Assembly: GCA_022711715.1 (NCBI GenBank)
Contig: JAKLEC010000001.1
Coordinates: forward strand, 112,860 to 176,859
Reading direction: 5' to 3'
Length of the DNA: 64,000 bases
DNA from: Acidobacteriota bacterium
GTDB lineage: Bacteria; Acidobacteriota; Aminicenantia; UBA2199
The notes beneath the pieces are model-generated. The model was not told the DNA's origin. It worked only from the letters and a program-made list of their open reading frames with translations, and made no database searches. Below are positions 2,118 through 57,854 of this stretch, one piece after another. The position numbers and the translations under genes are program-made. The stretch's first letter is position 1, and each line of letters starts with the position of its first letter.

Positions 2118-2127
2118 TTTCCTGATT

Positions 2128-2156
2128 CGTCACGCGTCACGCGTTTCGCGTCACGA
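2128..2156. repeat. GTCACGC heptamer array (complement of GCGTGAC), 4 units
   Basis: gtcacgc gtcacgc gtttcgc gtcacga. Contains the mazG stop codon on the minus strand. Confidence 0.85.
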
Positions 2157-2930
2157 TGGCTCGGTCAGCTCCGTCTTGGACCTCTGCCACAGCGCCTCCA
2201 TCTCCGCCAGCGAGGCGGAGGCGACGTCCCGGCCGCCGCGGCGCAGCTCGGCCTCGATGAAGCGGAAGCGGGCGGTGAACTTGCGGTTGGCGCGCGCCAA
2301 AGCGAACTCGGGGTTGATGTCCAGCAGCCGCGCCACGTTGGCCACGGCGAACAGCAGGTCGCCGACCTCGTCCTCGGCCGCATGGCGGCGGCCGGCGGCG
2401 ATCTCGGCGCGCAGCTCGGCGCACTCCTCGGCGACCTTCTCCAGCGCCTGCCCGGCGTCGCCCCAGTCGAAGCCGACCCCCGAGGCCTGCGAGGCGATGC
2501 GCTTGGCCAGCAGCAGCGCCGGCATGGAGGCCGGGTAATCGGAGATGACGCTGGCCTTGTTTTTCTCGGCGATCTTGATTTTCTCCCAGTTGGCCTTGAC
2601 CTCGTCGGCGTTGTCGACCTTCGTCCCGGCAAAGATATGCGGGTGGCGGCGCACCAGCTTCTCGACGATGCCGGCGGCGACGTCGTCGATGGTGAAGCGT
2701 CCCTCCTCGGCGGCGATCTGGGACAGGAAAACGATCTGCAGCAGCAGGTCGCCCAGCTCCTCGCGCACGGCCCGCGGGTCGTTGCCGTCGATGGCCTCGA
2801 GCAGCTCGTGAGCCTCTTCCAGGACGTACTCCTTGAGCGAGGCGGGGGTCTGCTTCAGGTCCCAGGGGCAGCCGCGCTTGGGATGGCGCAGCTTCTTCAT
2901 GACGGCGACCAGGCGGTTGAACGGCTTCAT
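2151..2930 (-). CDS. mazG: Nucleoside triphosphate pyrophosphohydrolase MazG
   Basis: Two MazG repeats (EEAHELLEAI, GDLLLQIVF; EECAELRAEI, GDLLFAVANV). ATG 2930 chosen because the upstream ATG 2966 lies inside the predicted -10 box. Stop lies inside a GCGTGAC array. Confidence 0.9.
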   Translation of the reverse strand: MKPFNRLVAVMKKLRHPKRGCPWDLKQTPASLKEYVLEEAHELLEAIDGNDPRAVREELGDLLLQIVFLSQIAAEEGRFTIDDVAAGIVEKLVRRHPHIFAGTKVDNADEVKANWEKIKIAEKNKASVISDYPASMPALLLAKRIASQASGVGFDWGDAGQALEKVAEECAELRAEIAAGRRHAAEDEVGDLLFAVANVARLLDINPEFALARANRKFTARFRFIEAELRRGGRDVASASLAEMEALWQRSKTELTEPS

Positions 2931-2961
2931 GGCGGTGTCCCCCGCAGCGCGGGGAAGCGAT

Positions 2962-2990
2962 ATCATAGCCCGGAACGGCCCTTATGGCAA
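2962..2990 (-). promoter_or_regulatory. Sigma70-type promoter TTGCCA-17-TATGAT for mazG
   Basis: Read on the minus strand. About 30 nt upstream of ATG 2930. Confidence 0.5.
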
Positions 2991-3015: not shown

Positions 3016-3225
3016 CGTGGCAAGTGACGCGTGACGAGCGACAAGTAGCAGCACGGGAACGAGCGATCGTAATTCGTGATTCGTAATTCGTGATTCGGAA
3101 CGGCAATAGTTCGGCTCATGCTGTTCCTAACACAAACACGAACCCGAACACGGAGAAAGGCTTTTCCCGCCCTCTCTTCCCTCATTCCTCCCTCCCTCTT
3201 CCCTTTATTTTCCCTGTGATTTTGA
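3016..3225. repeat. Composite mosaic: GTGAC array - linker - CGTRATT array - AACGGCAATAG core - CACAAA/CACGAA array - CTTCCC-rich arm
   Basis: Read directly from the sequence. The first four modules are colinear with 46067-46237. Confidence 0.85.
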
Positions 3226-8573: not shown

Positions 8574-9179
8574 ATGCCGCTCATCCCCATGGTCATCGAG
8601 CAGTCGGGCAACGTCGAGCGCGCCTACGACATCTACTCCCGCCTGCTGAAGGACTCGATCATTTTCCTGGGCTCGCCCATCGACGACAACGTGGCCAACG
8701 TGACCATCGCCCAGCTGCTGTTCCTGGAGGCCGAGGACCCGGAGAAGGACGTCTCCATCTACATCAACTCGCCGGGCGGCATCATCAGCTCCGGCCTGGC
8801 CATCTACGACACCATGCGTTTCATCAAGAACGACGTGGTGACCATCTGCATCGGCCAGGCCGCCTCCATGGCCGCCATCCTGCTGGCCGGCGGCACCAAG
8901 GGCAAGCGCTTCGCCCTGCCCAACGCCAAGGTGATCATCCACCAGCCGCTGGGCGGCTTCGAGGGCCAGGCCACCGACATCCTCATCCAGGCCGAGGAGA
9001 TGCGCAAGGTCAAGGAGAAGACCATCGAGATCCTCTCGCTGCACACCGGCCAGAAGCCCGAGAAGGTGGCCCAGGACATCGAGCGCGACTGCATCATGTC
9101 GCCGGAGGAGGCGCTGAAGTACGGCATCATCGACGCCGTGGTCGCCGAGCGCAAGAAGGAGAAGAAAGGGGGCAAATGA
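8574..9179 (+). CDS. clpP: ATP-dependent Clp protease proteolytic subunit
   Basis: Full-length ClpP similarity (GQAASMAA active-site Ser context, IHQPLGG). Confidence 0.97.
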
Positions 9180-10386
9180 AGGAAGAGAAGGAAGCCCGCT
9201 GCAGCTTCTGCGGCATCCCCCAGTCGCGGGCGGTCAAGCTGATCGCCGGCCCCGGGGTCTACATCTGCGACGAGTGCACCAAGACCGCCTACAACCTCAT
9301 CTTCAGCGGCGGCGAGGCGCCCAAGCCCGCCGCCAGCGCCAAGAAGCTGAAGCTGCTCACCCCCGCCGAGATCAAGGCCAGGCTCGACGAGTACATCATC
9401 TCCCAGGACGCGGCCAAGAAGAAGCTGGCCGTGGCCGTCTACAACCACTACAAGCGCATCCAGCACGGCCAGAACCTGGCCAGCAAGGTCGACATCCGCA
9501 AGAGCAACGTGCTGCTCATCGGCCCCACCGGCACCGGCAAGACGCTGCTGGCCGAGACGCTGGCCAAGGTGCTGGACGTGCCCTTCGCCATGGCCGACGC
9601 CACCACCCTGACCGAGGCCGGCTACGTCGGCGAGGACGTGGAGAACATCCTGCTCAAGCTCTACCAGGCCGCCGGCGAGAACCGCGAGCTGGCCGAGAAG
9701 GGCATCGTCTACATCGACGAGCTCGACAAGATCTCGCGCAAGAGCGAGAACCCGTCCATCACCCGCGACGTCTCCGGCGAGGGCGTGCAGCAGGCGCTGC
9801 TGAAGATCGTCGAGGGCACGGTGGCCAACGTGCCGCCGCTGGGCGGGCGCAAGCACCCCTACCAGGAGTTCCTCAAGATCGACACCAAGAACATCCTGTT
9901 CATCGCCGGCGGCGCCTTCGTCGGCCTGGACAAGATCATCCAGCGCCGCCTCAAGAAGAACGTCATCGGCTTCTCCACCCCCAAGGAGCGCGACAAGAGC
10001 CGCGCCTACCGCGCCGACGTCTTCGAGCAGGTGCAGCCCGACGACCTGATCCGCTACGGCCTCATCCCCGAGCTCGTCGGCCGCTTCTCGGTCACCGGCG
10101 TGCTCAACGAGCTCGACCGCGAGCAGCTGTACCGCATCCTGCTGGAGCCCAAGGACGCCATCACCAAGCAGTTCAAGGCCCTGCTCAAGATGGACGGCGT
10201 CGACCTGGAGTTCTCCAAGGAGGCGCTGGAGATGATCACCGGCCAGGCCATCTCGCGCGGCGTCGGCGCCCGCGGCCTGCGCGCCATCTTCGAGGAGATC
10301 ATGCTCGACCTGATGTTCGAGGTGCCCTCGCGCAAGGAGGCGGCCGGCAGGGTGGTCATCGACGGCCAGTTCCTCAGGGACCGCAA

Positions 10387-13318: not shown

Positions 13319-14584
<1,266 letters not shown>

Positions 14585-14599
14585 GTCGAGATCAGCGAC

Positions 14600-14784
14600 C
14601 TATCGTGACGCGTAACGCGTGACGCGTGACGCGGAACAGCCTGAGCCTGATCACCAAAGAGTGCAGCCATCAAATCAAAGAGGGTAATTCTGCAGATAAT
14701 TTTTCAGGAAACTTTATAGATTACAAGAATAGATCTTCCTTTTGCTGCTACTTGTCACGCGTCACGCGTTACGCGTCACGATAG
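14600..14784. repeat. Perfect 31-bp inverted repeat of GCGTRAC heptamers enclosing a 123-nt AT-rich insert
   Basis: 14600-14630 ctatcgtgacgcgtaacgcgtgacgcgtgac is the exact reverse complement of 14754-14784. The right arm contains the stop of CDS 14776-15951. Confidence 0.95.
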
Positions 14785-15951
14785 CTGCAGCACTTCTTCG
14801 ATCCCCTGCCGGATCTCTCTGATCACTACCCTCCATGAGTAGTACTGCTGCACATACTTCCTGCCGCGGCGGCCCATGAGGAAGCGTCGCAGGGGGTGGC
14901 CGGCGACGGCGCGGAAGCCGGCCAGGAACTCCTCCCCGTTGCCGTAGGTCAAGCCGCCGCCCGACATGCGCACATGCTCGACCAGGGCGGCGCAATCGCG
15001 GTTGACCAGCACCGGCGTGCCCATGGCGAAGGACTCCAGGGTGGTGATCGACAGGCTCTCCAGCAGCGAGGGCTGCAGCGACAGCACCGCGCCCTGGAAG
15101 GCGGCGTGCTTGTCGGCCTCGGGGACGAAGCCGAGATAGCGCAGCCCCGGCAGGTCGGGCAGGTCCATCAGCTTCTTGCCGATCAGCACCAGGTCCACTT
15201 GGCGCTCGCGGCGCAGGGCACGGAAGTGGTCGAACACCGGCTCCAGCCCCTTGCCCCTCTCGATGCGGCCGGCGTACATCAGGTAGGGCGCCCGCAAGTT
15301 GTGGCGCCGGCGGAAGGAGCCTGCGTCGGCGCGGCCGGGGAGGTCGAGCCCGGTGCGCACCAGGCGCAGCGTTCCCGGCGGGTCGAACAGCCGCTTCACC
15401 AGGTCCATTTCGGCGCGGGTCAGAAAGAAGAGGGCGCGCGGCGTGCGGAAGATCCCGGCCATCAGCCGCATGTGGATGGGCGGCTCGTCGTGGGCCGTGG
15501 GAAAGAGGATCGCCGGCTTGCCCAGAACGCGCAGCCCGGCCACGGTGGGATAGTACAGGTAGGTGAAGAAGAGGTACAGGTCGGTGTTCGGCTCGGCATC
15601 GGCCAAGGCCTGGACCAGCCCGGGGCACAGGGGCCCCTGTGCGGCGATCCAGGCCTCCTCGTCGCGGTCGCCGCCGGGCGGCGCGGCGAAAAAGCTGTCG
15701 GACAGGCGATTGAAGGCGGCGATGTCGCGCTCGCGCTCCACCGGGAAGCGGCGCAGCGCAACGCCGTTCAGCCGCGATTCGCCGGGCTCGTACTCGTTGC
15801 GCCAGGTGACGTAGTCGCGGGCGCAGGTGGTGTAGACGGTCACCGCCAGCCCCTGGCCGGCCAGGCGCTCAGCCACGTCGCGGGCCAGGGTCTCGGCGCC
15901 GCCGACCACCTCCGCGCCGTAGCGCTGCACCACGATGCCCAGGGAGATCAT
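14776..15951 (-). CDS. Glycosyltransferase, GT-B fold (family 1/4-like)
   Basis: GT4-like C-terminal pattern (ESLSITTLESFAMGTPVLV). Stop codon sits inside a GCGTGAC array. Confidence 0.8.
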   Translation of the reverse strand: MISLGIVVQRYGAEVVGGAETLARDVAERLAGQGLAVTVYTTCARDYVTWRNEYEPGESRLNGVALRRFPVERERDIAAFNRLSDSFFAAPPGGDRDEEAWIAAQGPLCPGLVQALADAEPNTDLYLFFTYLYYPTVAGLRVLGKPAILFPTAHDEPPIHMRLMAGIFRTPRALFFLTRAEMDLVKRLFDPPGTLRLVRTGLDLPGRADAGSFRRRHNLRAPYLMYAGRIERGKGLEPVFDHFRALRRERQVDLVLIGKKLMDLPDLPGLRYLGFVPEADKHAAFQGAVLSLQPSLLESLSITTLESFAMGTPVLVNRDCAALVEHVRMSGGGLTYGNGEEFLAGFRAVAGHPLRRFLMGRRGRKYVQQYYSWRVVIREIRQGIEEVLQLS

Positions 15952-17006
15952 AGCGCCTCCAGGCGGGCGAGCAGCCTTTGGGGGTCGGCCTCGCGCCGGT
16001 ATTCGTTGAACCGGCGCTGCGCCGCCTGGCGCAGCCGCCGGCGCAGCTTCTCGTCGGCCAGCACGCGCTCGATCGCGGCCGCCGCGGCCGGCAGGTCGCG
16101 GCGCAGCAGCAGCAGGCCGGCGCCCCCCAGAGTCTCGGGCACGGCGCCGGCGGCAAGGGCCACCACCGGCAGGCCGGCGCGGCAGCTCTCGATCAGCGGC
16201 AGGCAGAAGCCCTCGTGCTCGCTCAGGGAGACGAACACGTCGGCCAGGCCGTAGGCGGCCGCCAGCTCGGCGTCGCTCAGGCGGCCGGCGAAGACCAGGT
16301 CGCGGTTGTCCAGCCCCAGGCGGTCGGCCAGGGCCAGCAGGGCTTGGTGATAGCGCGGCAGGCCGGCGTAGTTGCCGGCGATGATCAGCCGCGCCGGGAC
16401 CGTTGCCTGGCGCTTGAGCAGGGCCAGCATGCGGACCAGCTCCTCGATGCGCTTGTTGGGCGTCACCCGGCCGACGAAGAGCAGGTTGCGCCGGCCGTCG
16501 CGAAAGGGGGCGGCGAAGGAGGGGCTGGGCGTGGCAGCAACGGCCGCCTCGTCGAGCAGCACCGGGAAGACGAAGACGTCCTTGGCCCCCAATCGCCGCA
16601 GCTCCCCGGCGTTGAATTCCGAGTCGGCGACGAAATGGTCCAGCGCCGCGACCAGCCCGCGCAGCTCGCCGCGCGCCGCCGCGGTCAGGCGGCGCAGCGG
16701 CTCGGAGATGCCGGCGAAGAACTCGGGCGGGGTGACGTTGTGGTACAGGAGAACCTTGCGCCCGTTCAGGCGCAGGAAAGCTTCCGTGATCGGCGAGGCG
16801 ATGGCGAAATGGTAGATGCGCAGCGCGTCGGGATGGGGCGGCCGCTCCCGGGGCGTCGCCGCCTCGTTGCGCAGCTCCGGGTCGATGGTCAGGGCCAGCA
16901 CCCGGCTGTCATGGCCGCGCCCCAGCAGGAAGCGGTGGAAGCGGCGCGCATAGCCGCCCACGGCGTCGCCGGCGTGGAAGGCGGAGAGGTACTGCTCGAC
17001 GACCAT
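15948..17006 (-). CDS. Glycosyltransferase, GT-B fold (paralog A)
   Basis: EHEGFCLPLIES and GLPVVA motifs. 4-nt overlap with the downstream GT. Clear paralog of 17011-18069. Confidence 0.8.
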   Translation of the reverse strand: MVVEQYLSAFHAGDAVGGYARRFHRFLLGRGHDSRVLALTIDPELRNEAATPRERPPHPDALRIYHFAIASPITEAFLRLNGRKVLLYHNVTPPEFFAGISEPLRRLTAAARGELRGLVAALDHFVADSEFNAGELRRLGAKDVFVFPVLLDEAAVAATPSPSFAAPFRDGRRNLLFVGRVTPNKRIEELVRMLALLKRQATVPARLIIAGNYAGLPRYHQALLALADRLGLDNRDLVFAGRLSDAELAAAYGLADVFVSLSEHEGFCLPLIESCRAGLPVVALAAGAVPETLGGAGLLLLRRDLPAAAAAIERVLADEKLRRRLRQAAQRRFNEYRREADPQRLLARLEAL

Positions 17007-17010
17007 GGCG

Positions 17011-18069
17011 CTACAATTGCCGCAGCCAGCCGGCCAGGACGGCGGGGTCGGCCTGGCGGCGGTAGCGCTCGACGCGCGGCGCGCCCTGGGCGCGCAGGCG
17101 GCGGTTCAGCTCGCCGTCCTCCAGCGCCTGGCGCAGCAGCTCGGCCGCCCGCGCCGGGTCCTTGTCACGGAAGAGGATGCCGGCGCCGTCCATGGTCTCG
17201 GCCACGGCGGCGGCGTCGAAGGCCAGCAGCGGCAGCCCGAACAGGCAGCTCTCCAGCAGCGGCAGGCAGAAGCCCTCGTGCTCGCTCATCGACAGGAACA
17301 CGTCGGCGCTACGGTAGACGGCCAGGAACTCGTCCAGCGGCAGGTGGCCGGTGAACAGCACGTCCTCCGAGGTCAGGTGGAAGCGCGCCGCCAGGTCGGC
17401 CACGGCGTGGAAGTACTTCGGCAGCGAGCGCGTGTTGCCCATCACGATCAGGCGCACGGCCGGGGAGACGAACTTCTTGTAGTAGAACACCGTGCGCACC
17501 AGGTCCTCGATGCGCTTGTTGGGGATGACCCGGCCCACGAACAGGATGTTCCTGCGCTCGTCGTCCAGCATCTTCATCATCGGCCGGTTGGGCTCGCCGC
17601 CGTAGGCGTCGAGGTCGGCCAGCAGCGGGAAGGAGCGCACCGCGGGGTAGCCTAGCTCGCGCAACTCGCCGGCGCTGTACTCCGACATGCCCACGGCCAG
17701 GTCGAAGGCCCCGGCCAGCCGGCCCAGGTGCTCGCGGCCGGCGCTGACGAAGCGCACGAAGAAGTCGGAATAGCCGACGAAGAAGCGCGCCGGCGTGATG
17801 TTGTGGTAGAGCATGGCCTTGGGGCCCTTCTGCTCCAGGAAGAAGTCGGTCAGCGGCGAGGGGACGGCGAAGTGCAGCACCTTGACCGCGGCGGCGTCGG
17901 GACGATGGCCGGCGAAGGACACGGCGCGGTCGCGCATGCCCTCGTCGCAGGTCAGCGTCACCAGCCGCGAGCCGATCCCCTGCCCGCGCAGGAAGCGGTC
18001 GAGGGCCAGGGCGGCGTTGCTGACCGCGTCGCCGTAGTGGAAGGCCGGGAGGTACTGCTCGACGATCAT
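17011..18069 (-). CDS. Glycosyltransferase, GT-B fold (paralog B)
   Basis: Same 352-aa length as 15948-17006 and colinear similarity to it (M(I/V)VEQYL.AFH.GDAV, EHEGFCLPLLES). Confidence 0.8.
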   Translation of the reverse strand: MIVEQYLPAFHYGDAVSNAALALDRFLRGQGIGSRLVTLTCDEGMRDRAVSFAGHRPDAAAVKVLHFAVPSPLTDFFLEQKGPKAMLYHNITPARFFVGYSDFFVRFVSAGREHLGRLAGAFDLAVGMSEYSAGELRELGYPAVRSFPLLADLDAYGGEPNRPMMKMLDDERRNILFVGRVIPNKRIEDLVRTVFYYKKFVSPAVRLIVMGNTRSLPKYFHAVADLAARFHLTSEDVLFTGHLPLDEFLAVYRSADVFLSMSEHEGFCLPLLESCLFGLPLLAFDAAAVAETMDGAGILFRDKDPARAAELLRQALEDGELNRRLRAQGAPRVERYRRQADPAVLAGWLRQL

Positions 18070-18123
18070 GGCGTTCTTGTAACAGAAAAGAAGGCCTGGG
18101 TCAATCGCAGGGCTTTCAGGAAA

Positions 18124-18214
18124 GTGATAGTGGTAGTGATAGTGATAGTAACAGCATCAACGGCAATTTGTGTTAGTGTTTGTGTTAGGAACAGCAATAA
18201 GAGAGCAGCTCTTT
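18124..18214. repeat. GTGRTA array - AACAGCA junction - GTGTTN array - GGAACAGCAATAAG core
   Basis: gtgata gtggta gtgata gtgata (18124-18150). gtgtta gtgttt gtgtta gg (18170-18189). Confidence 0.85.
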
Positions 18215-18231
18215 CCGAAACTAGTAGGACT

Positions 18232-18513
18232 AAAGCACCAAGTTCCAAGCATCAAATTCCAAATAAACGCCAAGCACCAATGACCAAATAACCAAAACCA
18301 AGAAAAGTGATTGTGATAGTGTTAGTGTTTGTTAGTGCACTCAAACGATTTCTAATGGAATTATGAGATCAATAGAATGTATTTATGACCGAAACTCAAT
18401 TCATCTAAAGGCAAATTGAAGAGCCCTTTACATTGTTCTAAAGAGGATTTCGTTGCGGGTTTTTCCTAACACTATCACTAACACCATCACTTTCTTTGGT
18501 GCTTGGTGCTTGG
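18232..18513. repeat. Nested hairpin: CACCAAG-type and GTGWTA-type arms around an AT-rich insert of about 125 nt
   Basis: Outer arms caccaagttccaagc...gccaagcaccaa (18236-18305) versus ctttggtgcttggtgcttgg (18493-18513). Inner arms gtgattgtgatagtgttagtgtttgttagtg (18307-18337) versus cctaacactatcactaacaccatcac (18465-18490). Confidence 0.8.
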
Positions 18514-18623: not shown

Positions 18624-19229
18624 TTAGAAGCCGCCCAGGTTGGCCAGCCCGGAGATGCTGCCCAGGGCGATGCGGCTGACGATGAAGCCCACCAGCCAGT
18701 AGATCACCACCATGGCGACGATGGCGGCGACGAGGTAGGGCATCAGCTTGTCCTTGGCCGGCTCCTTGATCTTCTGCAGGCCGAGGTACATGAGGTAGAG
18801 CGAGTAGATACTGGCAATGATCATCAGCACCGACAGGGCGGGGATGATGCCCAGTATGCCGGCGATCCAGGCCGGGGTATAGGAGAAGACGGCGATCTTG
18901 ACGGCGGCCACCATGTTCTTCTGGCAGCCGAAGGTCGGCGCCAGGGCGTCGATGATGAAGGCCAGCAGGAACACGCCGGCCAGGCCGAGGACGTAGGTCA
19001 GGACCGCCCAGACCAGGGCGGTGCCGATCGGCCAGCGGAAGGTGCCGAAGCCGCCGAACGACATGCCGATGACCACGTAGCCGATGAGGCCGGCGACGGC
19101 CGGGATGGCGGCCAGGATCATGGCGTACTTGGTGAACATCTCGGCGATGGTCAGGGACTCGCCCTTGATCACGTCCCATTCCTTGGCCGGGGCCAAGATG
19201 ATGTTCTTCGCTCTTTCAACCAGGTTCAT
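18624..19229 (-). CDS. Yip1/DUF1282 family membrane protein
   Basis: N-terminus MNLVERAKNIILAPAKEWDVIK plus 5 hydrophobic helices. GGAGGAAACA SD before ATG 19229. Strong terminator follows. Confidence 0.75.
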   Translation of the reverse strand: MNLVERAKNIILAPAKEWDVIKGESLTIAEMFTKYAMILAAIPAVAGLIGYVVIGMSFGGFGTFRWPIGTALVWAVLTYVLGLAGVFLLAFIIDALAPTFGCQKNMVAAVKIAVFSYTPAWIAGILGIIPALSVLMIIASIYSLYLMYLGLQKIKEPAKDKLMPYLVAAIVAMVVIYWLVGFIVSRIALGSISGLANLGGF

Positions 19230-19259
19230 CTGTTTCCTCCTATGATTTCGGTATGCACA

Positions 19260-19288
19260 TAGATACCGTAAAGAAGTAGAAATGTCAA
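19260..19288 (-). promoter_or_regulatory. Sigma70-type promoter TTGACA-17-TATCTA for the Yip1 gene
   Basis: Read on the minus strand, about 30 nt upstream of ATG 19229. Confidence 0.5.
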
Positions 19289-19305
19289 TCTGCCAGTGCA
19301 AGCTA

Positions 19306-19357: not shown

Positions 19358-19461
19358 TTTTTTTACAAACCCGGATTCATCGACACATTGAATCTCAATA
19401 TGGATTTTTTTGCTATTTCCTTTGCCGTGCATCGTTCATAAAAGGTATTTTACTTTTGCTT

Positions 19462-19700
19462 CACCATACGCCGTATGCCGTACGCCGTGCGCCAAGGGCA
19501 TTTTCCTCTTTCATCACCGTATGCCGTATGCCGTACGCCCAGGGCATTTTCCTCTTTCATCACCGTACGCCGTATGCCGTACGCCCAGGGCATTTTCCTC
19601 TTTCTTCACCGTACGCCGTATGCCGTACACCGTGCGCCCAGGGCATTTTCCTCTTTCTTCACCGTACGCCGTATGCCGTACGCCGTGCGCCCAGCTCTCC
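19462..19700. repeat. Tandem repeat, 4.5 copies of a 46/53-bp unit (GCCGTAY heptamers + CAGGGCATTTTCCTCTTTCWT)
   Basis: Copies at 19462-19514 (53 nt), 19515-19560 (46), 19561-19606 (46), 19607-19659 (53) and 19660-~19700 (partial). The length difference is exactly one heptamer. Confidence 0.92.
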
Positions 19701-26146: not shown

Positions 26147-26254
26147 CACTTGTCACTCAGCTCGAAAATCTATCGCTGCTTCTCGTCATGCGTCACGATA
26201 GATGGATCTGTTACTGTTTCGAGTCACGAATCACGAATCACGAATTACGATAGC
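26147..26254. repeat. Degenerate array mosaic (GTCAC-type and CACGAAT-type units)
   Basis: cacttgtcactcag...ctcgtcatgcgtcacgatag...gagtcacgaatcacgaatcacgaattacgatagc. Confidence 0.7.
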
Positions 26255-28788: not shown

Positions 28789-28819
28789 AGTCCCGGCCGG
28801 CGGCAAAGACGGAAAACAA

Positions 28820-28963
28820 GTGATAGTGGTAGTGGTAGTGATAGTAGCGAGCACGAAAATGCCCTATAGGAAAGTGCTATTCGGATGTTTCCCATGATAC
28901 CAACAAGGTCTTATTAGGTCGGCACATGCAGTTCCTACCACTACCACTATCACTACCACTAAG
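28820..28963. repeat. GTGRTA / TAYCAC inverted arrays enclosing an 86-nt insert
   Basis: Left arm gtgatagtggtagtggtagtgatagtag (28820-28847). Right arm cctaccactaccactatcactaccactaag (28934-28963). Confidence 0.88.
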
Positions 28964-36080: not shown

Positions 36081-36137
36081 GAAAGAAGTTCTGAAAATGC
36101 CTTTCCCACTCTCTCTTCCCTCTGTCTTCCCTTGAGA
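35947..36137. repeat. GGGAAG-type element with inserted CACGTAC x3 array; overlaps the rluB 3' end
   Basis: cagggaagaaacagggaagaatgagggaagacagagggg ... ccacgtaccacgtaccacgtacc (36019-36043) ... gtgagaaagaagttctgaaaatgcctttcccactctctcttccctctgtcttcccttgaga. Confidence 0.85.
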
Positions 36138-36160
36138 TGGGTGGTTCTCAGGTGTAGAAT
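36132..36160 (+). promoter_or_regulatory. Sigma70-type promoter TTGAGA-17-TAGAAT for paralog 1
   Basis: The -35 box is the terminal CTTCCCTTGAGA of the GGGAAG-type repeat. The same architecture occurs at 37205-37233. Confidence 0.5.
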
Positions 36161-36190
36161 GATCCCATGCACTGTCCCGAGGAGAATCTG

Positions 36191-37093
36191 ATGCGCCATA
36201 AAATCACGATCGGCGTTTTGGCACTGCTTCTGGGCATCCTGACCGCTCCCGCCCGCCTTCATGCCTCGGCCCCGCGCAACATCATCGTCTACTTCGAGTT
36301 CCTCGACAACGCCAACGGCATCGAGGAGGCCGTCTCCTTCCTGTTCGGGCGCATGCTGCGGCCCGGCGACCAGCTGATCGTGCAGTCGCCGGCCAGGACC
36401 TACGGCTTCTCGCCGGCCAGCCTGGGACGCTCCAAGGCCGAGCTGGCCGTCTCCCTGCAGGGCCGGCTGCGCGGCGACATTTCCCGCTCGGGCCAGGGCT
36501 ATAAGCAGGTCCTCCTGGACCTGGACGCGGCGGCGCTGGAGATCGCCGAGCTCGCCTACCCGACCGGCGTGGTGGACGCCAACAAGGACCTGGGCGAGAT
36601 GTTCATCCTCTACCGCCAGGGCCTGGCCAACCTGCGGCAGCTGCGCCAGGTGAGCGCCGCCTCGCTGCGCCGGCTCAGCGGCGCCTTCCAGGGCCAAAAG
36701 GGTGAAAACCACGTCATCGTCCTCTTCGAGCGCGAGTTCCGCCCCATCCCGCGCCGCGAGGCGCTGAACGCGCTGGCCGACATGCCCGCCTTCGCCATGA
36801 AGGCCAACGAGATGTTCTCCGCGACCGAGCTTGACCCGCCCTTTGACGTGCCAGCGCTGGCCGCTTTCTTCCGCGGCGTGCCGCTGACCCTGCACTTCGT
36901 CTACGTCACCTCCAAGAACACGACGATCGCCGGCAACCGCTTTGAGAGTTCGGGCGACATCTACTCCGCCTTCAGCAAGCTCGCCGAAGCCACCGGCGGC
37001 GTATGCGCGGCGACGGCAGAACCAAGGGACGGGCTGAAAGCGGTATTGAAGGCCTGGCAGGGCTCAAAATTGAGCGGATCCAGGGAAGAATGA
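36191..37093 (+). CDS. Secreted alpha/beta protein, tandem paralog 1 (VWA-like fold suspected, no MIDAS)
   Basis: GAGGAG SD 5 nt before ATG 36191. Signal peptide. Shares PRNIIV(Y/F)FE, GDQLI.QSP, QKGENH.IVLFEREFRP.PRREALN, VPLTLHFVYVT and ATGGVC with the two downstream genes. Confidence 0.8.
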   Translation: MRHKITIGVLALLLGILTAPARLHASAPRNIIVYFEFLDNANGIEEAVSFLFGRMLRPGDQLIVQSPARTYGFSPASLGRSKAELAVSLQGRLRGDISRSGQGYKQVLLDLDAAALEIAELAYPTGVVDANKDLGEMFILYRQGLANLRQLRQVSAASLRRLSGAFQGQKGENHVIVLFEREFRPIPRREALNALADMPAFAMKANEMFSATELDPPFDVPALAAFFRGVPLTLHFVYVTSKNTTIAGNRFESSGDIYSAFSKLAEATGGVCAATAEPRDGLKAVLKAWQGSKLSGSREE

Positions 37094-37210
37094 GGGAAGA
37101 CAGAGGGAAAGGCAGAGGGAAAATAAAGTGAGAAAGAGGTTCTGAAAAGGCCTTTCCCACTCTCTCTTCCCTTTCTCCTCCCTCACTCTTCCCTCTGTCT
37201 TCCCTTGAGA
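37081..37210. repeat. GGGAAG-type hairpin element (compact form)
   Basis: Purine arm 37081-37137, loop ttctgaaaagg, pyrimidine arm 37150-37210. Contains the TGA stop of paralog 1 and the -35 box of paralog 2. Confidence 0.9.
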
Positions 37211-37262: not shown

Positions 37263-38153
37263 ATGCCCCGAAAATCTCCCGCCTTCATTCTCACCCTCAT
37301 CCTGTTCCTGGCCGCCCTGGCCGCCCCGTGCCGCCTGGCGGCTGCCGGGCCGCGCAACATCATCGTCTTCTTCGAGCTCCGCGATGATGTCGCCGGCGTG
37401 GAGAGCGCCGTGGAGACGGTTTTCGACAAGATGCTCGCGCCCGGCGACCAGCTCATCATCCAGTCGCCGGTCCGCGTCTACGGGTTCTCGGCGCAGACCC
37501 TAGCCCGGCCCAAGGCCGAGCTGGTCGCGGCCATCAACGACAAGCTGCGCGCCGACATCACCCGGGCGGCGCAGACCTACAAGCAGGTGATCGGCGAGCT
37601 CGAGACGGCGGCCCGCAACATCGCCAGCCTCGCCTACCCCGACCTCGAGTCGAGCGGCGCCCTGCCCGAGGTCCGCGACATGGGCGAGCTGTTCAACTTC
37701 TACCGCCAGGGGCTGGCCAACCTGGCCGTCCTGCGCAAGGCCAACGACGCCTCCCTGCGCCAGCTGGCCGGCGCCTTCCGCGGCCAGAAGGGCGAAAACC
37801 ATATTATCGTCCTCTTCGAGCGCGAGTTCCGGCCGGTCCCCCGGCGCGAGGCCTTGAACGTGCTGGCCGACATGCCCAAGATCGCCTTCCAAGCCAACGA
37901 GCTGTTCACCATCGGCAACCTGAAGGAACCCTTCGACGCCGACGCCCTGGCCGGGTTCCTCAAGGGAGTGCCGCTGACGCTCCATTTCGTCTACGTCACC
38001 GGCAAGACCACGTCGGCAACCGGCAACCTGCTGGAGAACTCGGGCGACGTCTATTCGGCGTTCAGCGAGGCGGCCCAGGCCACCGGCGGCGTGTGCACGA
38101 CGACCGCCGAGCCCAGCGATGGGCTGAAAACGATTCTTAAATCCTGGAAATAG
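37263..38153 (+). CDS. Secreted alpha/beta protein, tandem paralog 2
   Basis: AGGAGG SD, signal peptide, colinear with paralogs 1 and 3. Confidence 0.85.
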   Translation: MPRKSPAFILTLILFLAALAAPCRLAAAGPRNIIVFFELRDDVAGVESAVETVFDKMLAPGDQLIIQSPVRVYGFSAQTLARPKAELVAAINDKLRADITRAAQTYKQVIGELETAARNIASLAYPDLESSGALPEVRDMGELFNFYRQGLANLAVLRKANDASLRQLAGAFRGQKGENHIIVLFEREFRPVPRREALNVLADMPKIAFQANELFTIGNLKEPFDADALAGFLKGVPLTLHFVYVTGKTTSATGNLLENSGDVYSAFSEAAQATGGVCTTTAEPSDGLKTILKSWK

Positions 38154-38160
38154 AAAAGGG

Positions 38161-38261
38161 CTATCGTAATTCGTAAGGCGTAATTCGTGATTCGTAGCGG
38201 CAAAAGGCCGATCCGTTGCGGTTCTTTTTCCGAATTCCGAATTACGAATCACGAGTGATCG
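38161..38261. repeat. CGTRATT-armed hairpin element, copy 3
   Basis: ctatCGTAATTCGTaaggCGTAATTCGTGATTCGtagcggcaaaaggccgatccgttgcggttctttttcCGAATTCCGAATTACGAATCACGagtgatcg. Confidence 0.9.
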
Positions 38262-38325
38262 TCCTCCCTGTATTTATATTTGACAAAGGAGTATCATTCC
38301 ATCGAGACAATCCACAGGAGATGCC

Positions 38326-39237
38326 ATGCGACGCAAAAAATCGATTTCCCTGCTGGCCCTGTTCCTGGCACTGGCCGCCCTGGCCGTTCCCGCCCCGCTG
38401 CAGGCCGCCGGGCCGCGCAACATCATCGTCTTCTTCGAGTTCCGCGAAGTCACCGGCGGCGTAGATGCCGCTTTGGAGACGGTCTTCAACCGCATGCTCG
38501 GCCCCAGCGACCAGCTGATCATCCAGTCGCCGGCGCGGCTCTACGGCTTCTCGCCGCAGACCCTGGCCCGGCCCAAGACGGAGCTGATCGCCATGATGCA
38601 CGAGAAGCTGCGCGGCGACATCTCCCAGGCGGCGCAGAACTACCAGCAGGTCACCAAGGACCTGGAGATCGCCGTGCGCAACCTGGAGGGTTTCGTGATG
38701 CCTTCGGGGGTCCCCGAAGCCGGCGGCATGGGCGGCGGCAGGGAAACCCGGGACCTCAGCGAGCTCTTCAACGGCTACCGCCAGGGGCTGGACAACCTGG
38801 CCGTCCTGCGCAAGGTCAACGAGGCCGCATTGCGCCAGCTGGCCGGCGCCTTCCGCGGCCAGAAGGGAGAGAACCACATTATCGTCCTGTTCGAGCGCGA
38901 ATTCCGGCCGGTGCCGCGGCGTGAGGCGCTGAACATCCTGGGCGACATGCCCAAGTTCGCCTTCCAGGCCAACGAGCTGTTCACCATCGGCAACCTGAAG
39001 GAACCCTTCGACGGCGCCGCCCTGGCCGAGTTTTTCAAGGAGGTGCCGCTGAAGTTGCATTTCGTCTACGTCACCGGCAAGACCACGTCGGCAACCGGCA
39101 ATCTGCTGGAGAACTCGGGCGACGTCTACTCGGCCTTCAGCAAGGCGGCCCGGGCCACCGGCGGCGTGTGTGAGACCACGGCCGAGCCGGCGGACGGCTT
39201 GAAGGCGGTCATGAAGGCCTGGAAGGACGAAAAATAG
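38326..39237 (+). CDS. Secreted alpha/beta protein, tandem paralog 3
   Basis: AGGAG SD, signal peptide, colinear with paralogs 1 and 2. Confidence 0.85.
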   Translation: MRRKKSISLLALFLALAALAVPAPLQAAGPRNIIVFFEFREVTGGVDAALETVFNRMLGPSDQLIIQSPARLYGFSPQTLARPKTELIAMMHEKLRGDISQAAQNYQQVTKDLEIAVRNLEGFVMPSGVPEAGGMGGGRETRDLSELFNGYRQGLDNLAVLRKVNEAALRQLAGAFRGQKGENHIIVLFEREFRPVPRREALNILGDMPKFAFQANELFTIGNLKEPFDGAALAEFFKEVPLKLHFVYVTGKTTSATGNLLENSGDVYSAFSKAARATGGVCETTAEPADGLKAVMKAWKDEK

Positions 39238-39246
39238 CGGCAGAAG

Positions 39247-39340
39247 CGATCGTAATTCGTTAGACGTAATTCGTAATTCGTAACCGCAACAGATCGATCC
39301 GTTGCAGTTCCTCTTCCGAATTACGAATCAGGAGTGATCG
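39247..39340. repeat. CGTRATT-armed hairpin element, copy 4
   Basis: Same architecture and orientation as 38161-38261. Core ccgcaacagatcgatccgttgcag. Confidence 0.9.
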
Positions 39341-39367
39341 TTCCCCCTGTAGTTCTTTTGGCAGGGG

Positions 39368-39471
39368 CTATCGCAATTCGTCAGGCGTAATTCATAATTC
39401 ATAGCCGCAAAAGACTGGTCTATTGCCGCTTTTCTTCCGAATTTCGAACCACGAATTACGAATTACGGATC
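39368..39471. repeat. CGTRATT-armed hairpin element, copy 5 (more diverged)
   Basis: ctatcgcaattcgtcaggcgtaattcataattcatagccgcaaaagactggtctattgccgcttttcttccgaatttcgaaccacgaattacgaattacggatc. Confidence 0.85.
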
Positions 39472-43572: not shown

Positions 43573-46062
43573 GTGCCCACGTTCGCGAGGCGGTGGCGCG
43601 GCGCCGCCGCCGCGGCGCTGCTGCTGGCCCTGGCGTTCGCTGTCGGCGCCTGCCGCCGCCAGCAGCCGGGGCCGGGCGGCTCCGCCGGCGGCCGCTTCAA
43701 CCTGCTGCTCATCACTTTGGACACCACCCGGGCCGACCGCCTGGGCTGCTACGGCGACGCCCGCGCCGCGACGCCCGTGCTGGACCGCCTGGCCCGCGAG
43801 GGCGTGCGCTTCGAGCGCGCCTATACCACCGCGCCGCTCACCCTGCCGGCCCACGTCAGCCTGATGACCGGCCGCGGGCCCCAGGCCCACCAGGTGCGCA
43901 ACAACGGCACCTATGCGCTGCGCCCCGAGGAGGCCACCCTGGCCGAGGAGCTGAAGCGCGCCGGCTTTTCCACCGCGGCCATGATCGCCGCCTTCGTGCT
44001 GGAAGCCAAGTTCGGACTGGCCCAGGGGTTCGACCGCTACGACGACGCGCTGGACAAGCCGCAGGGCTACACCAACTTCCGCTCCGAGATCACCGCCGAC
44101 CGGGTGCACGACAAGTTCCGCCGCTGGCTGGACGGCGCCCCCGGGGCGCCCTTCTTCTGCTGGGTGCACCTCTACGATCCCCACGCCCCCTACGCGCCGC
44201 CCGCCCCCTACCGCGAGCGCTTCGCCGGCGACCCCTACCGCGGCGAGATCGCCTTCATGGACGAGACCATCGGCCGCATGCTGGCCGACCTGGAGGAGCG
44301 CGGCCTGCTGGAGAACACCCTGGTGGTGGCCGTGGGCGACCACGGCGAGGGCTTCGACGAGCACGGCGAGAGCGGGCACGGCGTCTTCTGCTACGAGGAG
44401 TCGCTGCGCGTGCCGCTCATCTTCCGCCTGCCGCGCCTTTTCGCCGGCGGCCGGGCGGTGAAGCGGCCGGTGGGACTGGTCGACGTGCTGCCCACCGTGC
44501 TCGATCTCTGCCGGCTGCCGCGCCCCGCCGGCATGCAGGGGCGCAGCCTGGGGACGCTGCTCCGCTCCGCCGGGGAGGACGGCGGCGAGGCCCCCCTCTA
44601 CTTCGAGAGCCTGTACGGCATGGAGGAGATGGGCTGGGCGCCCCTGTCGGGACTGCTGAGCGGCTCCTGGAAGTACATCTCCCTGCCCAAGCCGGAGCTG
44701 TACGACCTCGCCGCCGATCCGCTGGAAAAGAGCAACCTGTACCTGCAGAAAAACGCGCAGGCCAAGCGCCTGGCGCGCGAGCTGGACGACCTGCTGAGCC
44801 GCACGGTGCCCGCTGGCGCCTCGGCGCTGCGGCCGCAGCAGACGCGCGCCAACCAGGCGCGCCTGCGCGCCCTCGGCTACCTGGCCGCGGCCGGGAACCA
44901 GGCCTGGCAGGGCTCGGGCGACGACCCCAAGGACGGCATCGGGCCATTGAACTTACTGATGAAGGCCCGCGAGGAGGTACGCCAGGGGCGCCTCGACTCC
45001 GCCGCCCGACAGTTCGCCGCCCTGCGCGCCAGCGGCATCGACCGCACGCTCCCCCAGTTCTACGACATGTACTACGAGCTGGCGCTGGCGCGCAAGGACC
45101 CGGCCCGGGTACGTGCCGCCCTGCGCGAGGCCAGCGAGCGCTTTCCCAGCCTGACGCGCTTCGACATGGTGCTGGCGGGCTACCTGCGCGAGCGCGGCGA
45201 CAAGCACGGCGCCGAGGCGGCGGCGCTGCGCGCCCTGGCCAAGGACCCGAAGACCGTCGAAGCCCACCTGCTGCTGGGCGAGCTCTACCGCAACCAGAAG
45301 CAGCTGGAGAAGGCCATCACCCATTTTCGCCAGGCCTGGGACCTGGAGCCCGACGGCGCCAAGCTGGGCCTCGCCCTAGCCGACCTCAGCCTGGAGGCGG
45401 GGCGCGCGCCGGAGGCGCTGGAGGCGTTGCGCCGCCTCCTGCGCCAGGCCGGCGACCGTCCCGACGCGCTGGAAGCCGACGTCCGCGCCCAGGCGGCCAA
45501 GCTGCTGCTCAAGCTCGGGCAGCCGGAGCTCGCGGAAGGCCTGCTGCGCGGCCTGGTCGGCGAGCAGGCCGGCAACCCGGCGCACTGGACGCAGCTGGGC
45601 CTGGCCCAGCTCGACCGCGGCCAGGGGGACGAGGCGCTGGCCTCCTTCACCCGCGCCCTCGAGCTCGATCCCCGGCAGGCGCTGGCCCTGAGCGGCATGG
45701 GCACCCTGCACCTGACCCTGTTCCGCCAGCGCAAGGACCGGCCGAGCCTGCAGCGCGCCGAGGAGTACTTCTCGCGGGCGGTGGCCGTGGACGCCAAGCT
45801 GGTCACGGCGCTGAACGGCCTGGGCGTGACCTATCTCTACCTCGGGGACGCGGCACAGGCCATCGAGCGGCTGCGCACCGCCGTCGCCGCCGACCCGGGC
45901 TTCGTCAACGCCTATTTCAACCTGGCCATCGCCCAGCTCAGCGCCGGCCGCAAGGGCGCGGCGAAGAACACGCTGGGCATGCTGCGCCAGCGCCACGGCG
46001 GGCGCCTCAGCGCCGGGGAGCGATCGCAGTACGAGGCGCTCTGGCGCGAAGCCACGTCCTAG
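43573..46062 (+). CDS. Sulfatase-like (alkaline phosphatase superfamily, Thr-type) hydrolase fused to TPR domain
   Basis: LLITLDTTRAD...APLTLPAHVSLMTG...VGDHGEGF, followed by about 350 aa of TPR. GTG start with a possible lipobox (AVGAC). Confidence 0.85.
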   Translation: MPTFARRWRGAAAAALLLALAFAVGACRRQQPGPGGSAGGRFNLLLITLDTTRADRLGCYGDARAATPVLDRLAREGVRFERAYTTAPLTLPAHVSLMTGRGPQAHQVRNNGTYALRPEEATLAEELKRAGFSTAAMIAAFVLEAKFGLAQGFDRYDDALDKPQGYTNFRSEITADRVHDKFRRWLDGAPGAPFFCWVHLYDPHAPYAPPAPYRERFAGDPYRGEIAFMDETIGRMLADLEERGLLENTLVVAVGDHGEGFDEHGESGHGVFCYEESLRVPLIFRLPRLFAGGRAVKRPVGLVDVLPTVLDLCRLPRPAGMQGRSLGTLLRSAGEDGGEAPLYFESLYGMEEMGWAPLSGLLSGSWKYISLPKPELYDLAADPLEKSNLYLQKNAQAKRLARELDDLLSRTVPAGASALRPQQTRANQARLRALGYLAAAGNQAWQGSGDDPKDGIGPLNLLMKAREEVRQGRLDSAARQFAALRASGIDRTLPQFYDMYYELALARKDPARVRAALREASERFPSLTRFDMVLAGYLRERGDKHGAEAAALRALAKDPKTVEAHLLLGELYRNQKQLEKAITHFRQAWDLEPDGAKLGLALADLSLEAGRAPEALEALRRLLRQAGDRPDALEADVRAQAAKLLLKLGQPELAEGLLRGLVGEQAGNPAHWTQLGLAQLDRGQGDEALASFTRALELDPRQALALSGMGTLHLTLFRQRKDRPSLQRAEEYFSRAVAVDAKLVTALNGLGVTYLYLGDAAQAIERLRTAVAADPGFVNAYFNLAIAQLSAGRKGAAKNTLGMLRQRHGGRLSAGERSQYEALWREATS

Positions 46063-46066
46063 CAAA

Positions 46067-46294
46067 GATATCGTGACGCGTAACGCGTGACAAGTAACCG
46101 CGTCAGGACGAGCGCTCGTGATTCGTCATTCGTAATTCGTGATTCGCAACAGCAATGGAACGGTTCATGCTATTCGAACACTCTCTCGTCATTGATTCGC
46201 TTCAGGGCTTTCCTAACACGAACACAAACACGAACACATAGTTAGATCGTTCGTTCTTTTTGGCTTTCCTACCACTATCACTACCACTACCACT
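46067..46294. repeat. Composite mosaic: GCGTRAC array - linker - CGTRATT array - CAACAGCAATGG core - CACGAA/CACAAA array - TAYCAC array
   Basis: Colinear with 3016-3153. The final taccac array continues into the conserved 3' flank of the sulfatase-like gene. Confidence 0.85.
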
Positions 46295-46310
46295 CAGAGC
46301 TCGGTACGTT

Positions 46311-48667: not shown

Positions 48668-48689
48668 CGAGATACCAGCTAAGCAATCA

Positions 48690-48875
48690 GTGATAGTGGT
48701 AGTGGTAGTGATTGCAACCGCATTGAAGATCGATCTCATGAGGCTTTCTACGATGATCAACAGCGAAATACTTTGCTTTCAAGCCTCAATTTATCTTTAA
48801 ATGCACCATCCTCTGACCGGCAGCAGCAGGAGATCGCCATGTGCTGCTACTACCACGATCACTACCACTACCACT
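48690..48875. repeat. GTGRTA / TAYCAC inverted arrays enclosing a 132-nt insert
   Basis: Left arm gtgatagtggtagtggtagtgattg (48690-48714). Right arm ctactaccacgatcactaccactaccact (48847-48875). Confidence 0.88.
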
Positions 48876-54540: not shown

Positions 54541-54889
54541 CTTTCTGAGTGTCAGTGTCCGTGTCAGCAAGAAAGAACTTTCAGCAACCTATGTGTTCGT
54601 GTTAGTGTTTGTGTTAGTGTTAGGAAAGCCAGGATCATGAACACCGTCGAGATATAAGTGGTAGTGATAGTGATAGTGGTAGGAGCGGCATGAACCGATC
54701 TAATGCCGTTGCGGATCACGAATTACGAATCACAATGGGTTATTTGCTGTTCCTCGTCACGCGTCACGCGTCACGATTGTTTTGGACAGATCGGGTGTCA
54801 GTGATAGTGTTAGGAACAGCAATCAACGAAATCCTATCAAGAACCGAGCAAAGGGCTCTTCACTTTTACCTTTTTCCTTTTACCTTTCG
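54541..54889. repeat. Super-mosaic containing seven array types in about 350 bp
   Basis: GTGTCMG (54541-54570), GTGTTN (54593-54624), GTGRTA (54658-54683), small hairpin cggcat...atgccg, CACGAAT (54713-54732), GTCACGC (54755-54777), GTGATA/GTGTTA + GGAACAGCAAT (54796-54827), CTTTTNC (54858-54889). Confidence 0.88.
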
Positions 54890-57815: not shown

Positions 57816-57854
57816 GTGAACCTCCATGCGCTCATTTTCATCCATGGAGGGAAT

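Follow-up and report, generated by a model that had tools for sequence, protein, structure and literature searches.

Repetitive extragenic palindromes (REPs), with the related bacterial interspersed mosaic elements (BIMEs) and REP doublets forming hairpins (REPINs), are extragenic, imperfectly palindromic sequences of about 25-35 nt, present in many copies and for the most part as inverted dimers able to form a single large hairpin around spacers variable in length and sequence; they lie near gene ends, occur as several families in mosaics within one genome and are not accompanied by target-site duplications (PMC3733652; PMC3116915). One end of a REP carries a conserved unpaired GTAG or CGTC tag (PMC3733652). 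A second group, the short tandemly repeated repetitive (STRR) sequences of cyanobacteria and the TAACTGA repeats of Beggiatoaceae, Cyanobacteria and Bacteroidetes, consists of arrays of two to six copies of a specific 7-nt unit, almost all intergenic and at gene boundaries, with a patchy cross-phylum distribution that suggests horizontal transfer; in forward orientation these arrays give stop codons in all three frames, as MacGregor noted for TAACTGA repeats, and some overlap the ends of open reading frames (ORFs) (PMC4679880). MITEs (miniature inverted-repeat transposable elements), finally, have terminal inverted repeats around a short, non-coding and variable middle, and can be nested. The eukaryotic Foldback (FB) transposons combine heterogeneous loops with arms that consist of short repeats in tandem. 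Here we compare these systems with an inverted repeat at positions 14600-14784 of a 64,000-nt stretch (the window, meaning the whole stretch that was analysed) of an Aminicenantes genome (GenBank assembly GCA_022711715.1, contig JAKLEC010000001.1), which separates the gene for Rho from that for a glycosyltransferase. In the literature searched we found no description of such repeats in Aminicenantes, and the papers that join Aminicenantes with tandem repeats are unrelated.

Our analysis indicates that the inverted repeat is one ordinary copy of an abundant, apparently undescribed family of hairpin-forming intergenic repeats. We give a probability of roughly 0.6 to the reading that it is a complete copy of a dispersed foldback repeat of the REP-dimer, REPIN or MITE kind, whose recognised part is the heptamer array. 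Structurally it comprises two inverted modules, each of (CT)ATCG and about four TGACGCG units, with the ATCG ends pointing outwards and lying against the flanking genes; inside them come the short, conserved AACAGC ... GCTGCTAC junction and then a non-conserved AT-rich filler. Its parts are as follows.

14600-14630, forward strand: left arm, CTATCGTGACGCGTAACGCGTGACGCGTGAC, read as CTATCG, then CGTGACG, CGTAACG, CGTGACG and CGTGAC; the array proper is 14604-14633, and the arm starts 15 nt past the rho stop codon.
14634-14640, forward strand: left inner junction, GAACAGC; it provides the left half of the core stem (AACnGC) of the family.
14641-14743, no strand: AT-rich filler or loop, unique, 35.9% GC, unconserved, unstructured and without detectable signals.
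14744-14753, forward strand: right inner junction, GCTGCTACTT, which provides the right half of that stem; the motif is also found at 3042-3052 (inverted) and 48842-48850.
14754-14784, reverse strand: right arm, exactly the left arm in reverse complement; the last two full codons of the glycosyltransferase, CTA TCG, and its TGA stop (14776-14778) fall inside it.

The perfect 31-bp inverted repeat of the preliminary description is confirmed, 14600-14630 and 14754-14784 being exact reverse complements (31/31), and pairing extends beyond it, to 32/33 over 14598-14630 and 14754-14786 and, more widely, to 41 nt at 90% over 14600-14640 and 14744-14784. Searching with the 31-mer arm and allowing at most 3 mismatches returned 3 sites, against 0.00 expected from 100 shuffles. 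Tandem Repeats Finder (TRF) resolved the arms into 4.3 and 3.9 copies of a period of 7 with 90-91% matches, and they qualify as heptanucleotide tandem repeats, defined as at least three intergenic copies of a 7-nt unit. ACGCGT being palindromic, each arm also makes an imperfect palindrome. Isolated arm regions (45-47 nt) fold to -16.2 to -18.9 kcal/mol, compared with -11.6 to -12.8 for shuffled sequences, with an interrupted stem of ~10 bp, and the left arm by itself reaches -18.1 kcal/mol against -12.1 for shuffles; by these fold energies the arms resemble REP monomers, which are imperfect palindromes of 20-40 nt. For the entire element, folding gives -87 kcal/mol (z = -7.5) on one strand and -90.5 kcal/mol (z = -7.9) on the other.

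The same module is widespread in metagenomes. An exact-pattern scan of metagenome contigs with the 22-nt module ATCGTGACGCGTRACGCGTGAC returned more than 117 stretches; the L-numbered loci cited below are fetched loci, namely relatives, module-bearing contigs and one control (L026). The module-bearing contigs have 33-73% GC (80 loci among the matches listed), and the consensus of the module is ATCG(TGACGCG)~4, outside which no flank is conserved except an A-rich lead. Arrays lying 40-600 nt apart formed 25 pairs with the ATCG ends outward, 1 pair inward and 10 direct pairs. The outward-facing inverted pair is therefore a genuine unit and, as with REPs, most copies are inverted dimers with variable spacers. 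The loops of outward pairs measure 71-546 nt and are mutually non-homologous, the 120-123 nt of the present element being typical; those of the other pairs are unrelated to its insert and may hold other array modules or nested elements, as in L153, where a CGTAATT element is nested in the loop. In 10 of the 25 outward pairs, that of the window included, complementarity is perfect over the best-matching 16-32 nt.

Identical arms of 25-30 nt exist at other loci, and the very arm sequences of the element under study recur at other loci and in other genomes (L177, L153 and L128). Its G-A-G-G order of heptamer variants is repeated in L153 and L177, and G-A-G in L128 and L131. Perfect arm identity is thus a matter of conserved family consensus and not necessarily of a recent local event. 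The preliminary description had seen in it recent formation or strong selection: a sister element whose arms agree with those of a relative at 52/53 positions, against 53/89 in the loop, backs the selection on arms; a recent event is not required, given the family consensus, and the many identical arm copies elsewhere that were named as a counter-indication do exist in part, at the three loci first given.

Low-GC contigs with the module encode GatB and DeoB proteins 77-90% identical to those of metagenome-assembled genomes (MAGs) labelled Candidatus Eremiobacterota, and the window is from Aminicenantes; judged from these protein matches, the GC-rich 22-mer is therefore present in at least two differently labelled phyla. 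In L149, L150 and other contigs of 33-40% GC this GC-rich 22-nt module is abundant. Viral contigs searched with the module gave no match.

The inner junctions also belong to the family. Compact CGTAATT-type copies of ~95-105 nt in the window have in common a central hairpin, AACnGCAAT...ATTGCnGTT, with an asymmetric TTCTTCC bulge, and GAACAGC (14634-14640) and GCTGCTACTT (14744-14753) are the two halves of this core, set 103 nt apart; GCTGCTACTTG is located at 14744-14754. Related junctions are present in L125, L131, L153 and L177, and 14 of the 29 occurrences of AACAGC in the window fall in its 14% intergenic fraction. Recurrence of the AACAGC / GCTGCTAC junction had been anticipated, correctly, and is that of a repeat family. 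The copy TGCTGCTAC lies at 48842-48850 as first reported; the inverted copy CAAGTAGCAGC is real, its true position being 3042-3052 and not 3041-3051; and AACAGC, described as the beginning of the insert, is present but starts at 14635, after GCGG.

The filler, by contrast with the arms and junctions, appears to be free of constraint. The 123 nt between the arms have 39.8% GC and the inner 103 nt 35.9%, compared with 67% for crude gene calls (the coding GC3, or GC at third codon positions, of the window is ~95%) and 42-60%, mostly 42-50%, for the array-bearing spacers of the window; the insert is AT-rich for this genome, yet only slightly more so than other spacers. Its uniqueness, likewise claimed at the outset, was borne out, since no other copy occurs in the ~1.6 Mb of fetched loci except in the identical L083. 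A 27-nt stretch of the insert had no match in viral contigs, nor had the spacer region 14560-14800 in plasmids. Folded alone, the insert is no better than shuffles (z = +1.0 and +1.4), and a scan for promoters and terminators found no sigma-70-like promoter in it and no intrinsic terminator on either strand. Rfam gave no family at the gathering threshold over the whole window; at E<=1, region 14500-14900 matched only plant miRNA-precursor models, far below threshold, because the element has the shape of a long hairpin. No plausible ORF with a ribosome-binding site (RBS) was found in the insert by reading the sequence.

The inverted repeat is no assembly artefact. An identical 191-nt spacer is carried by an independent assembly (ENA contig L083), and three Logan contigs, from other sequencing runs, enter the right arm by 28 nt from the glycosyltransferase side and then break; on these grounds the artefact reading was dismissed. 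Repeats of this kind break short-read assemblies, as the ends of the Logan contigs inside an arm illustrate.

Gene calls and Pfam also bore out the convergent arrangement of the neighbouring genes.

13319-14584, forward strand: rho, the left flank, reading towards the element; Pfam Rho_RNA_bind and ATP-synt_ab.
14776-15951, reverse strand: family-1 glycosyltransferase, the right flank, reading towards the element; Pfam Glycos_transf_1; its stop codon lies within the right arm.

The glycosyltransferase ends in ...VLQLS* in the window and in L208, and in ...VLAGR* in its homologue in L002, the changed Gln codon CAG standing at 14785-14787, just beyond the right arm. The element thus supplies the terminal codons and the stop codon of this gene, and since the 7-nt unit contains TGA, a stop is placed in all three reading frames. 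Across the family, 42 of 81 outer ATCG ends are found no more than 30 nt from a gene boundary: 24 are at, or inside, the stop of a co-directional gene, and 18 are 5-26 nt away from the start of a divergent gene. Inner array ends come this near to a gene in only 6 of 73 cases. In roughly half of the cases at stops the TGA is the array's own, at offsets of -7, -14 or -21 from the array start, which correspond to the first, second and third heptamers. Within the window, arrays begin 0-26 nt past the stop for most genes that end at a real spacer, and the heptamer arrays inspected were intergenic or overlapped a stop codon. Such repeats can mislead the calling of gene ends in these MAGs.

Arms may also enclose functional DNA. 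In L178 (685-1067) inverted CGTGACG arms surround a tRNA-Leu(CAA) gene (893-977) and a perfect TTGACA-17-TATAAT promoter, so arms can enclose a complete functional transcription unit. At low-GC loci, arms stand directly against the ribosome-binding sites of divergent genes on both sides of the loop, and those loops must therefore contain promoters.

Comparison of strains showed how fast the elements turn over. Relatives were found by exact-protein look-ups (identical Rho, or YsxC at least 90% identical); a Rho-based scan of species-representative genomes gave a best match of 71% identity, so these genomes include no syntenic close relatives. Strains that are 97-98.6% identical in nucleotides across clpX-lon-ysxC-rho have, despite this, four different sequences after rho.

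Window and L083: the element described here.
L001, L208 and L209: a compact CGTAATT-type foldback.
L002: a GTTCGAC-type foldback with a loop of ~240 nt.
L204, L205 and L206: GGCGTAC-type arrays, organised in higher-order repeats; the downstream gene is a different one.

The insert is thus missing from strains 97-98% identical to the window and with identical Rho, which have other elements or arrays at the site. L212, which is 94% identical to the window, retains the element at 28819-28960 with arms identical at 52/53 positions and a loop at 53/89 with 7 gaps. In L210 (90-95% identical), a CGTTAGA/TCTAACG-type element takes the place of a CGTAATT-type one of the window, and the arrays at 39238-39422 are different. 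L108 and L145 have one arm plus the loop in common at 99% identity, with different outer flanks, which may be taken as a hint of mobility. Taken together, the alignments show that arms are constrained or homogenised, that loops drift and that entire elements are exchanged on a within-species timescale.

The surroundings of the site vary as well. Over window positions 14776-18069, identity to L208 and L204 falls from ~98% in rho to ~91% in the glycosyltransferase genes, and after rho L204 has two small ORFs and an RHS/YD-repeat protein instead; because identity drops there and the genes of L204 differ, the 3' end of rho is the edge of a variable region. In L001 (3070-5402) lon was called as two ORFs (483 and 280 aa), where L204, L205, L208 and L209 have one gene of 777 aa, and the split is probably a frameshift or an assembly error.

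Within the window the layout of array, loop and inverted array occurs at no fewer than seven other sites (1344-1411, 18118-18496, 28819-28960, 37093-37205, 38181-38258, 39265-39332 and 48689-48875). Copies of the module and sister elements are the following.

2126-2159, reverse strand: single array module with 2 mismatches to the arm; it gives the TGA stop of the MazG-like gene 2151-2966 (reverse strand).
3017-3052, forward strand: degenerate module, with the module part at 3017-3038 and then the CAAGTAGCAGC junction.
26182-26200 (reverse strand) and 58220-58241: further module copies.
28819-28960, no strand: sister element of the same architecture, with hexamer arms (AGTGAT/AGTGGT) and a loop of 82-89 nt; used above to compare the conservation of arms and loop.
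38160-38262, no strand: compact sister element with CGTAATT-type arms and the core hairpin; more copies at 1338-1428, 39247-39341 and 39368-39470.
46070-46094, forward strand: single module (ATCGTGACGCGTAACGCGTGAC), 7 nt past the stop of gene 43573-46062; next come AAGTAACCGC and an array of CGTGATT/CGTAATT.
48689-48875, no strand: sister element with hexamer arms, a loop of 119 nt and the TGCTGCTAC junction.
54753-54778, reverse strand: single module in a spacer of 607 nt made up of a succession of other array modules.

According to TRF, most of the AT-rich spacers in the window hold short tandem arrays of 6-, 7- or 11-nt units, for example CGTAATT/CGTGATT, CCGTACG/CCGTATG, AGTGAT/AGTGGT, AACACG, CTTTTAC and AGGGAAGAAAG. 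Under a uniform criterion the window holds 28 heptamer arrays, or 4.4 per 10 kb, compared with 19 (0.22 per 10 kb), none of them of the CGTRAYK type, in 859 kb of control sequence from 80 genomes of other phyla. With 7 module copies beside these 28 arrays, the family is high in copy number and extragenic, as REPs are. Among the control loci, only a 13-kb contig of a Desulfacinum sp. MAG (L026) had 7 heptamer arrays, of other units (CTTACGC, CTGACGA, CGTAAGG and others), and array-rich spacers like these may exist in further lineages.

Several other features of these spacers deserve mention. Higher-order tandem repeats at 19447-19694 and 60642-61027 have units of 46-53 nt and 129-136 nt that themselves contain heptamer arrays (CCGTACG/CCGTATG or GGCGCAA); such arrays of arrays also follow rho in L204 and L205 (5860-6050). 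An element of ~210 nt with a long internal hairpin, 98.6% identical at two loci (L100, 2317-2532; L110, 4931-5141), lies within or next to arrays of heptamers, which in L110 are direct CGTRATG arrays, and looks like a separate MITE that targets arrays. Foldback elements separate three tandem paralogous genes without Pfam match (36167-37093, 37263-38153 and 38326-39237), two of which fall in one 90%-identity cluster, and each gene is preceded by a similar promoter-like sequence, TTGAGA...TAGAAT/TAGGAT. More generally, -10-like boxes (TAGAAT, TAGGAT, AATAAT, TATAAT, TATATA) end 1-7 nt before the called start codons of several genes (36130-36166 and, on the reverse strand, 46311-46345, 48892-48930, 58427-58455, 1934-1965 and 18070-18105), which suggests that leaderless or very short-leader mRNAs are frequent in this organism. 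Relative to codon shuffles, coding sequences are depleted in ACGCGT (2 against 8.5 expected) and CGTACG (1 against 14.4), and the intergenic arrays hold these hexamers 14 and 16 times. The depletion could reflect restriction avoidance or a bias of dinucleotide context; the idea that arrays concentrate ACGCGT and CGTACG as restriction-site decoys was not adopted, TCGCGA being depleted too (4 against 16.4 expected) yet forming no arrays.

How might such elements arise and persist? The data directly show that the elements are present in many copies and paired outwards, that their arms are conserved and their loops free, that they are replaced rapidly and overwrite gene ends, and that they are spread over more than one phylum. 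From this we infer that an enzyme or protein acting in trans recognises the arrays, and that movement or conversion of the element takes place at the level of DNA. It would be a non-autonomous DNA element resembling REP dimers, REPINs or MITEs, in which the hairpin-capable heptamer arrays serve as the sites recognised by the trans-acting enzyme or binding protein and the arms are kept uniform through transposition, recombination or conversion; it would settle in short spacers because it is tolerated only there. Of the three ideas offered by the preliminary description for the insert, a MITE cargo, a small RNA gene or a bidirectional terminator, the first came closest.

Several observations weigh against this foldback-repeat reading. 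The 64-kb window encodes neither a transposase nor a recombinase, all of its genes being ordinary chromosomal ones, and arm pairs 600-3000 nt apart in the fetched loci enclose ordinary genes (judged by eye, methyltransferase-like, lactonase-like and ATPase genes; also ornithine cyclodeaminase) and no transposase. A REP-associated tyrosine transposase (RAYT, a Y1 transposase) occurs neither in the window nor between the longer arm pairs of the fetched loci. The flanks of the element and of 16 other pairs are without direct repeats and hence without target-site duplication. In the sequences searched, this whole element has no second copy at another locus. Moreover, the window and L208 share exactly the same glycosyltransferase junction (ctgcag|CTATCGTGA) around different interiors, which is better explained by replacement or conversion in place than by two insertions independent of each other. 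Finally, since arms also surround functional DNA (the tRNA-Leu gene and promoter of L178, and the loops between the ribosome-binding sites of divergent genes), an alternative to a mobile element with cargo is that arms are brackets around intergenic DNA. Proteins common to high- and low-GC contigs with arrays yielded no candidate trans-acting factor; by eye they are mostly of histidine-kinase and sigma-54-activator types, the members in the window being confirmed by Pfam. L150 encodes (8679-9956, reverse strand) a 425-aa ORF that is of TnpB / IS605 OrfB type by eye only and is not adjacent to heptamer arrays.

A bolder proposal, which we regard as speculative though worth keeping in mind, is that of an undescribed, horizontally spreading system in at least two phyla, in which a trans-acting factor would recognise the 7-nt arrays and install or maintain outward-facing arrays at the edges of intergenic regions, overwriting gene ends, giving stops in three frames and bracketing promoters and tRNA genes. 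It would amount to a new mechanism of spacer turnover or insulation, and be neither a classical REP/RAYT nor a MITE system.

The main rival explanation, to which we give a rather low probability, holds that the arrays are sites for a host DNA- or RNA-binding protein, with one subunit or OB-fold per 7-nt unit, that marks or insulates gene boundaries, a pair then being simply two gene-facing sites. It would account for outer ends that adjoin gene boundaries with or without a partner arm, for the spacer 46063-46310, which is flanked by two non-complementary array types, for the arms that surround the tRNA gene and promoter of L178, and for the exact sequence being kept in both 35%-GC and 66%-GC genomes; heptamer-periodic binding by cold-shock or S1-type domains has, in addition, been discussed for TAACTGA repeats (PMC4679880). 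However, at least eight unit sequences coexist in one genome, which would demand either many specificities or a very loose one, and close strains swap unit types at the same site. The 25:1 outward bias and the frequent perfect complementarity argue for paired units, and no candidate protein was found.

More doubtful is a role as a bidirectional element at transcript ends, in which the 31-bp stem would terminate or stabilise the mRNAs of rho and the glycosyltransferase in the manner of REP/BIME hairpins and the arms would be conserved for their function in RNA. The stem is indeed very stable on both strands and lies between convergent genes, the arrays of the window closely follow the stops of most genes ending at a spacer (at the 0-26 nt given above), and REPs, which are believed to work as hairpins in RNA, are found mostly downstream of coding regions (PMC3733652). 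Yet the element does not combine a GC-rich stem-loop with a U-tract as an intrinsic terminator does: the sequence after each arm is not T-rich, the terminator scan was empty, and canonical terminators do occur in this genome, downstream of 18624-19301, 51521-54358 and 54966-57845 (all on the reverse strand), so that the bidirectional terminator first suggested is not supported in the classical, intrinsic sense. Divergent (6) and tandem (10) pairs are as common as convergent ones (4), and in transcripts entering the elements A.C mismatches between arms outnumber G.U (14 against 5, a small sample). Pairing alone, moreover, leaves the cross-phylum identity of sequence unexplained. The mixed contexts of the pairs, the excess of A.C over G.U mismatches and the missing U-tract in a window that has canonical terminators show that an RNA hairpin is not the general rationale of the family. 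A generic 3'-end hairpin role at this one site is possible, and is compatible with the foldback-repeat reading as a secondary effect: read-through RNA from either convergent gene would fold into a stem of 31-33 bp, which might act as a 3'-end barrier or as a target for a double-strand RNase, rather than as an intrinsic terminator.

Two further explanations are very improbable. Inversion of the 123-bp segment by a site-specific recombinase acting on the inverted repeats, for which one could cite the promoters that must lie between divergent genes in the low-GC relatives and arm and segment sizes that resemble those of known invertons (fimS and the Bacteroides and Clostridioides switches), conflicts with the absence of a detectable promoter from the insert and of any recombinase or invertase from the window, with the same orientation in both assemblies that span the element, with the single colinear alignment of each same-locus contig pair checked, and with the convergence of the flanking genes, because of which there is nothing to switch. 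A small RNA or small protein encoded by the insert, with the arms as processing or terminator stems, would suit a discrete AT-rich segment flanked by a strong stem, but the insert shows none of the marks of such a gene (its own promoter and terminator, an Rfam family, conserved sequence or structure, folding beyond that of shuffles, or a plausible ORF with an RBS), has no other copy in fetched or viral sequences and is missing in strains with identical Rho, so that the small RNA gene first suggested is not supported.

Taken by itself the locus is ordinary once the family is recognised, and the family is the more interesting object. Nearly every intergenic spacer of this Aminicenantes genome is taken up by hairpin-forming elements with arms of 6-7-nt units, one module of which is identical to the base in genomes that have 33-73% GC and carry different phylum labels; the elements rewrite the 3' ends of genes, stop codons included, and turn over between strains that are 97-98% identical. 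With REPs, BIMEs and REPINs the family has in common all the general properties given at the beginning. It differs from them in that its monomer is a tandem array of 7-nt units and not a single stem-loop, that its outer tag, after A-rich sequence, is ATCG (CTATCG in the high-GC group) instead of GTAG or CGTC, that its spacers span 71-546 nt rather than 20-100, that its copies stand beside start codons as often as beside stops, and that its module occurs in two differently labelled phyla of very different GC. STRR and TAACTGA repeats likewise agree with it in every feature set out above, three-frame stops and patchy distribution included. TAACTGA repeats, however, lie as direct arrays immediately upstream of start codons, and 170 sets of them include only one inverted pair (PMC4679880), whereas the present family forms outward-facing inverted pairs around a spacer and has many unit types coexisting in one genome. 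MITE and Foldback elements are matched by the terminal inverted repeats (31/31) around a short, non-coding, variable middle, and by nesting, as in L153 and L100/L110. Unlike MITEs, the element shows no target-site duplication, has no autonomous partner that we could find and possesses a unique interior; arms and junctions recur, and one other element, that of L108/L145, recurs with different flanks. If an enzyme or protein that recognises the arrays does exist, the family would link REP elements, the STRR repeats of cyanobacteria and the TAACTGA repeats.

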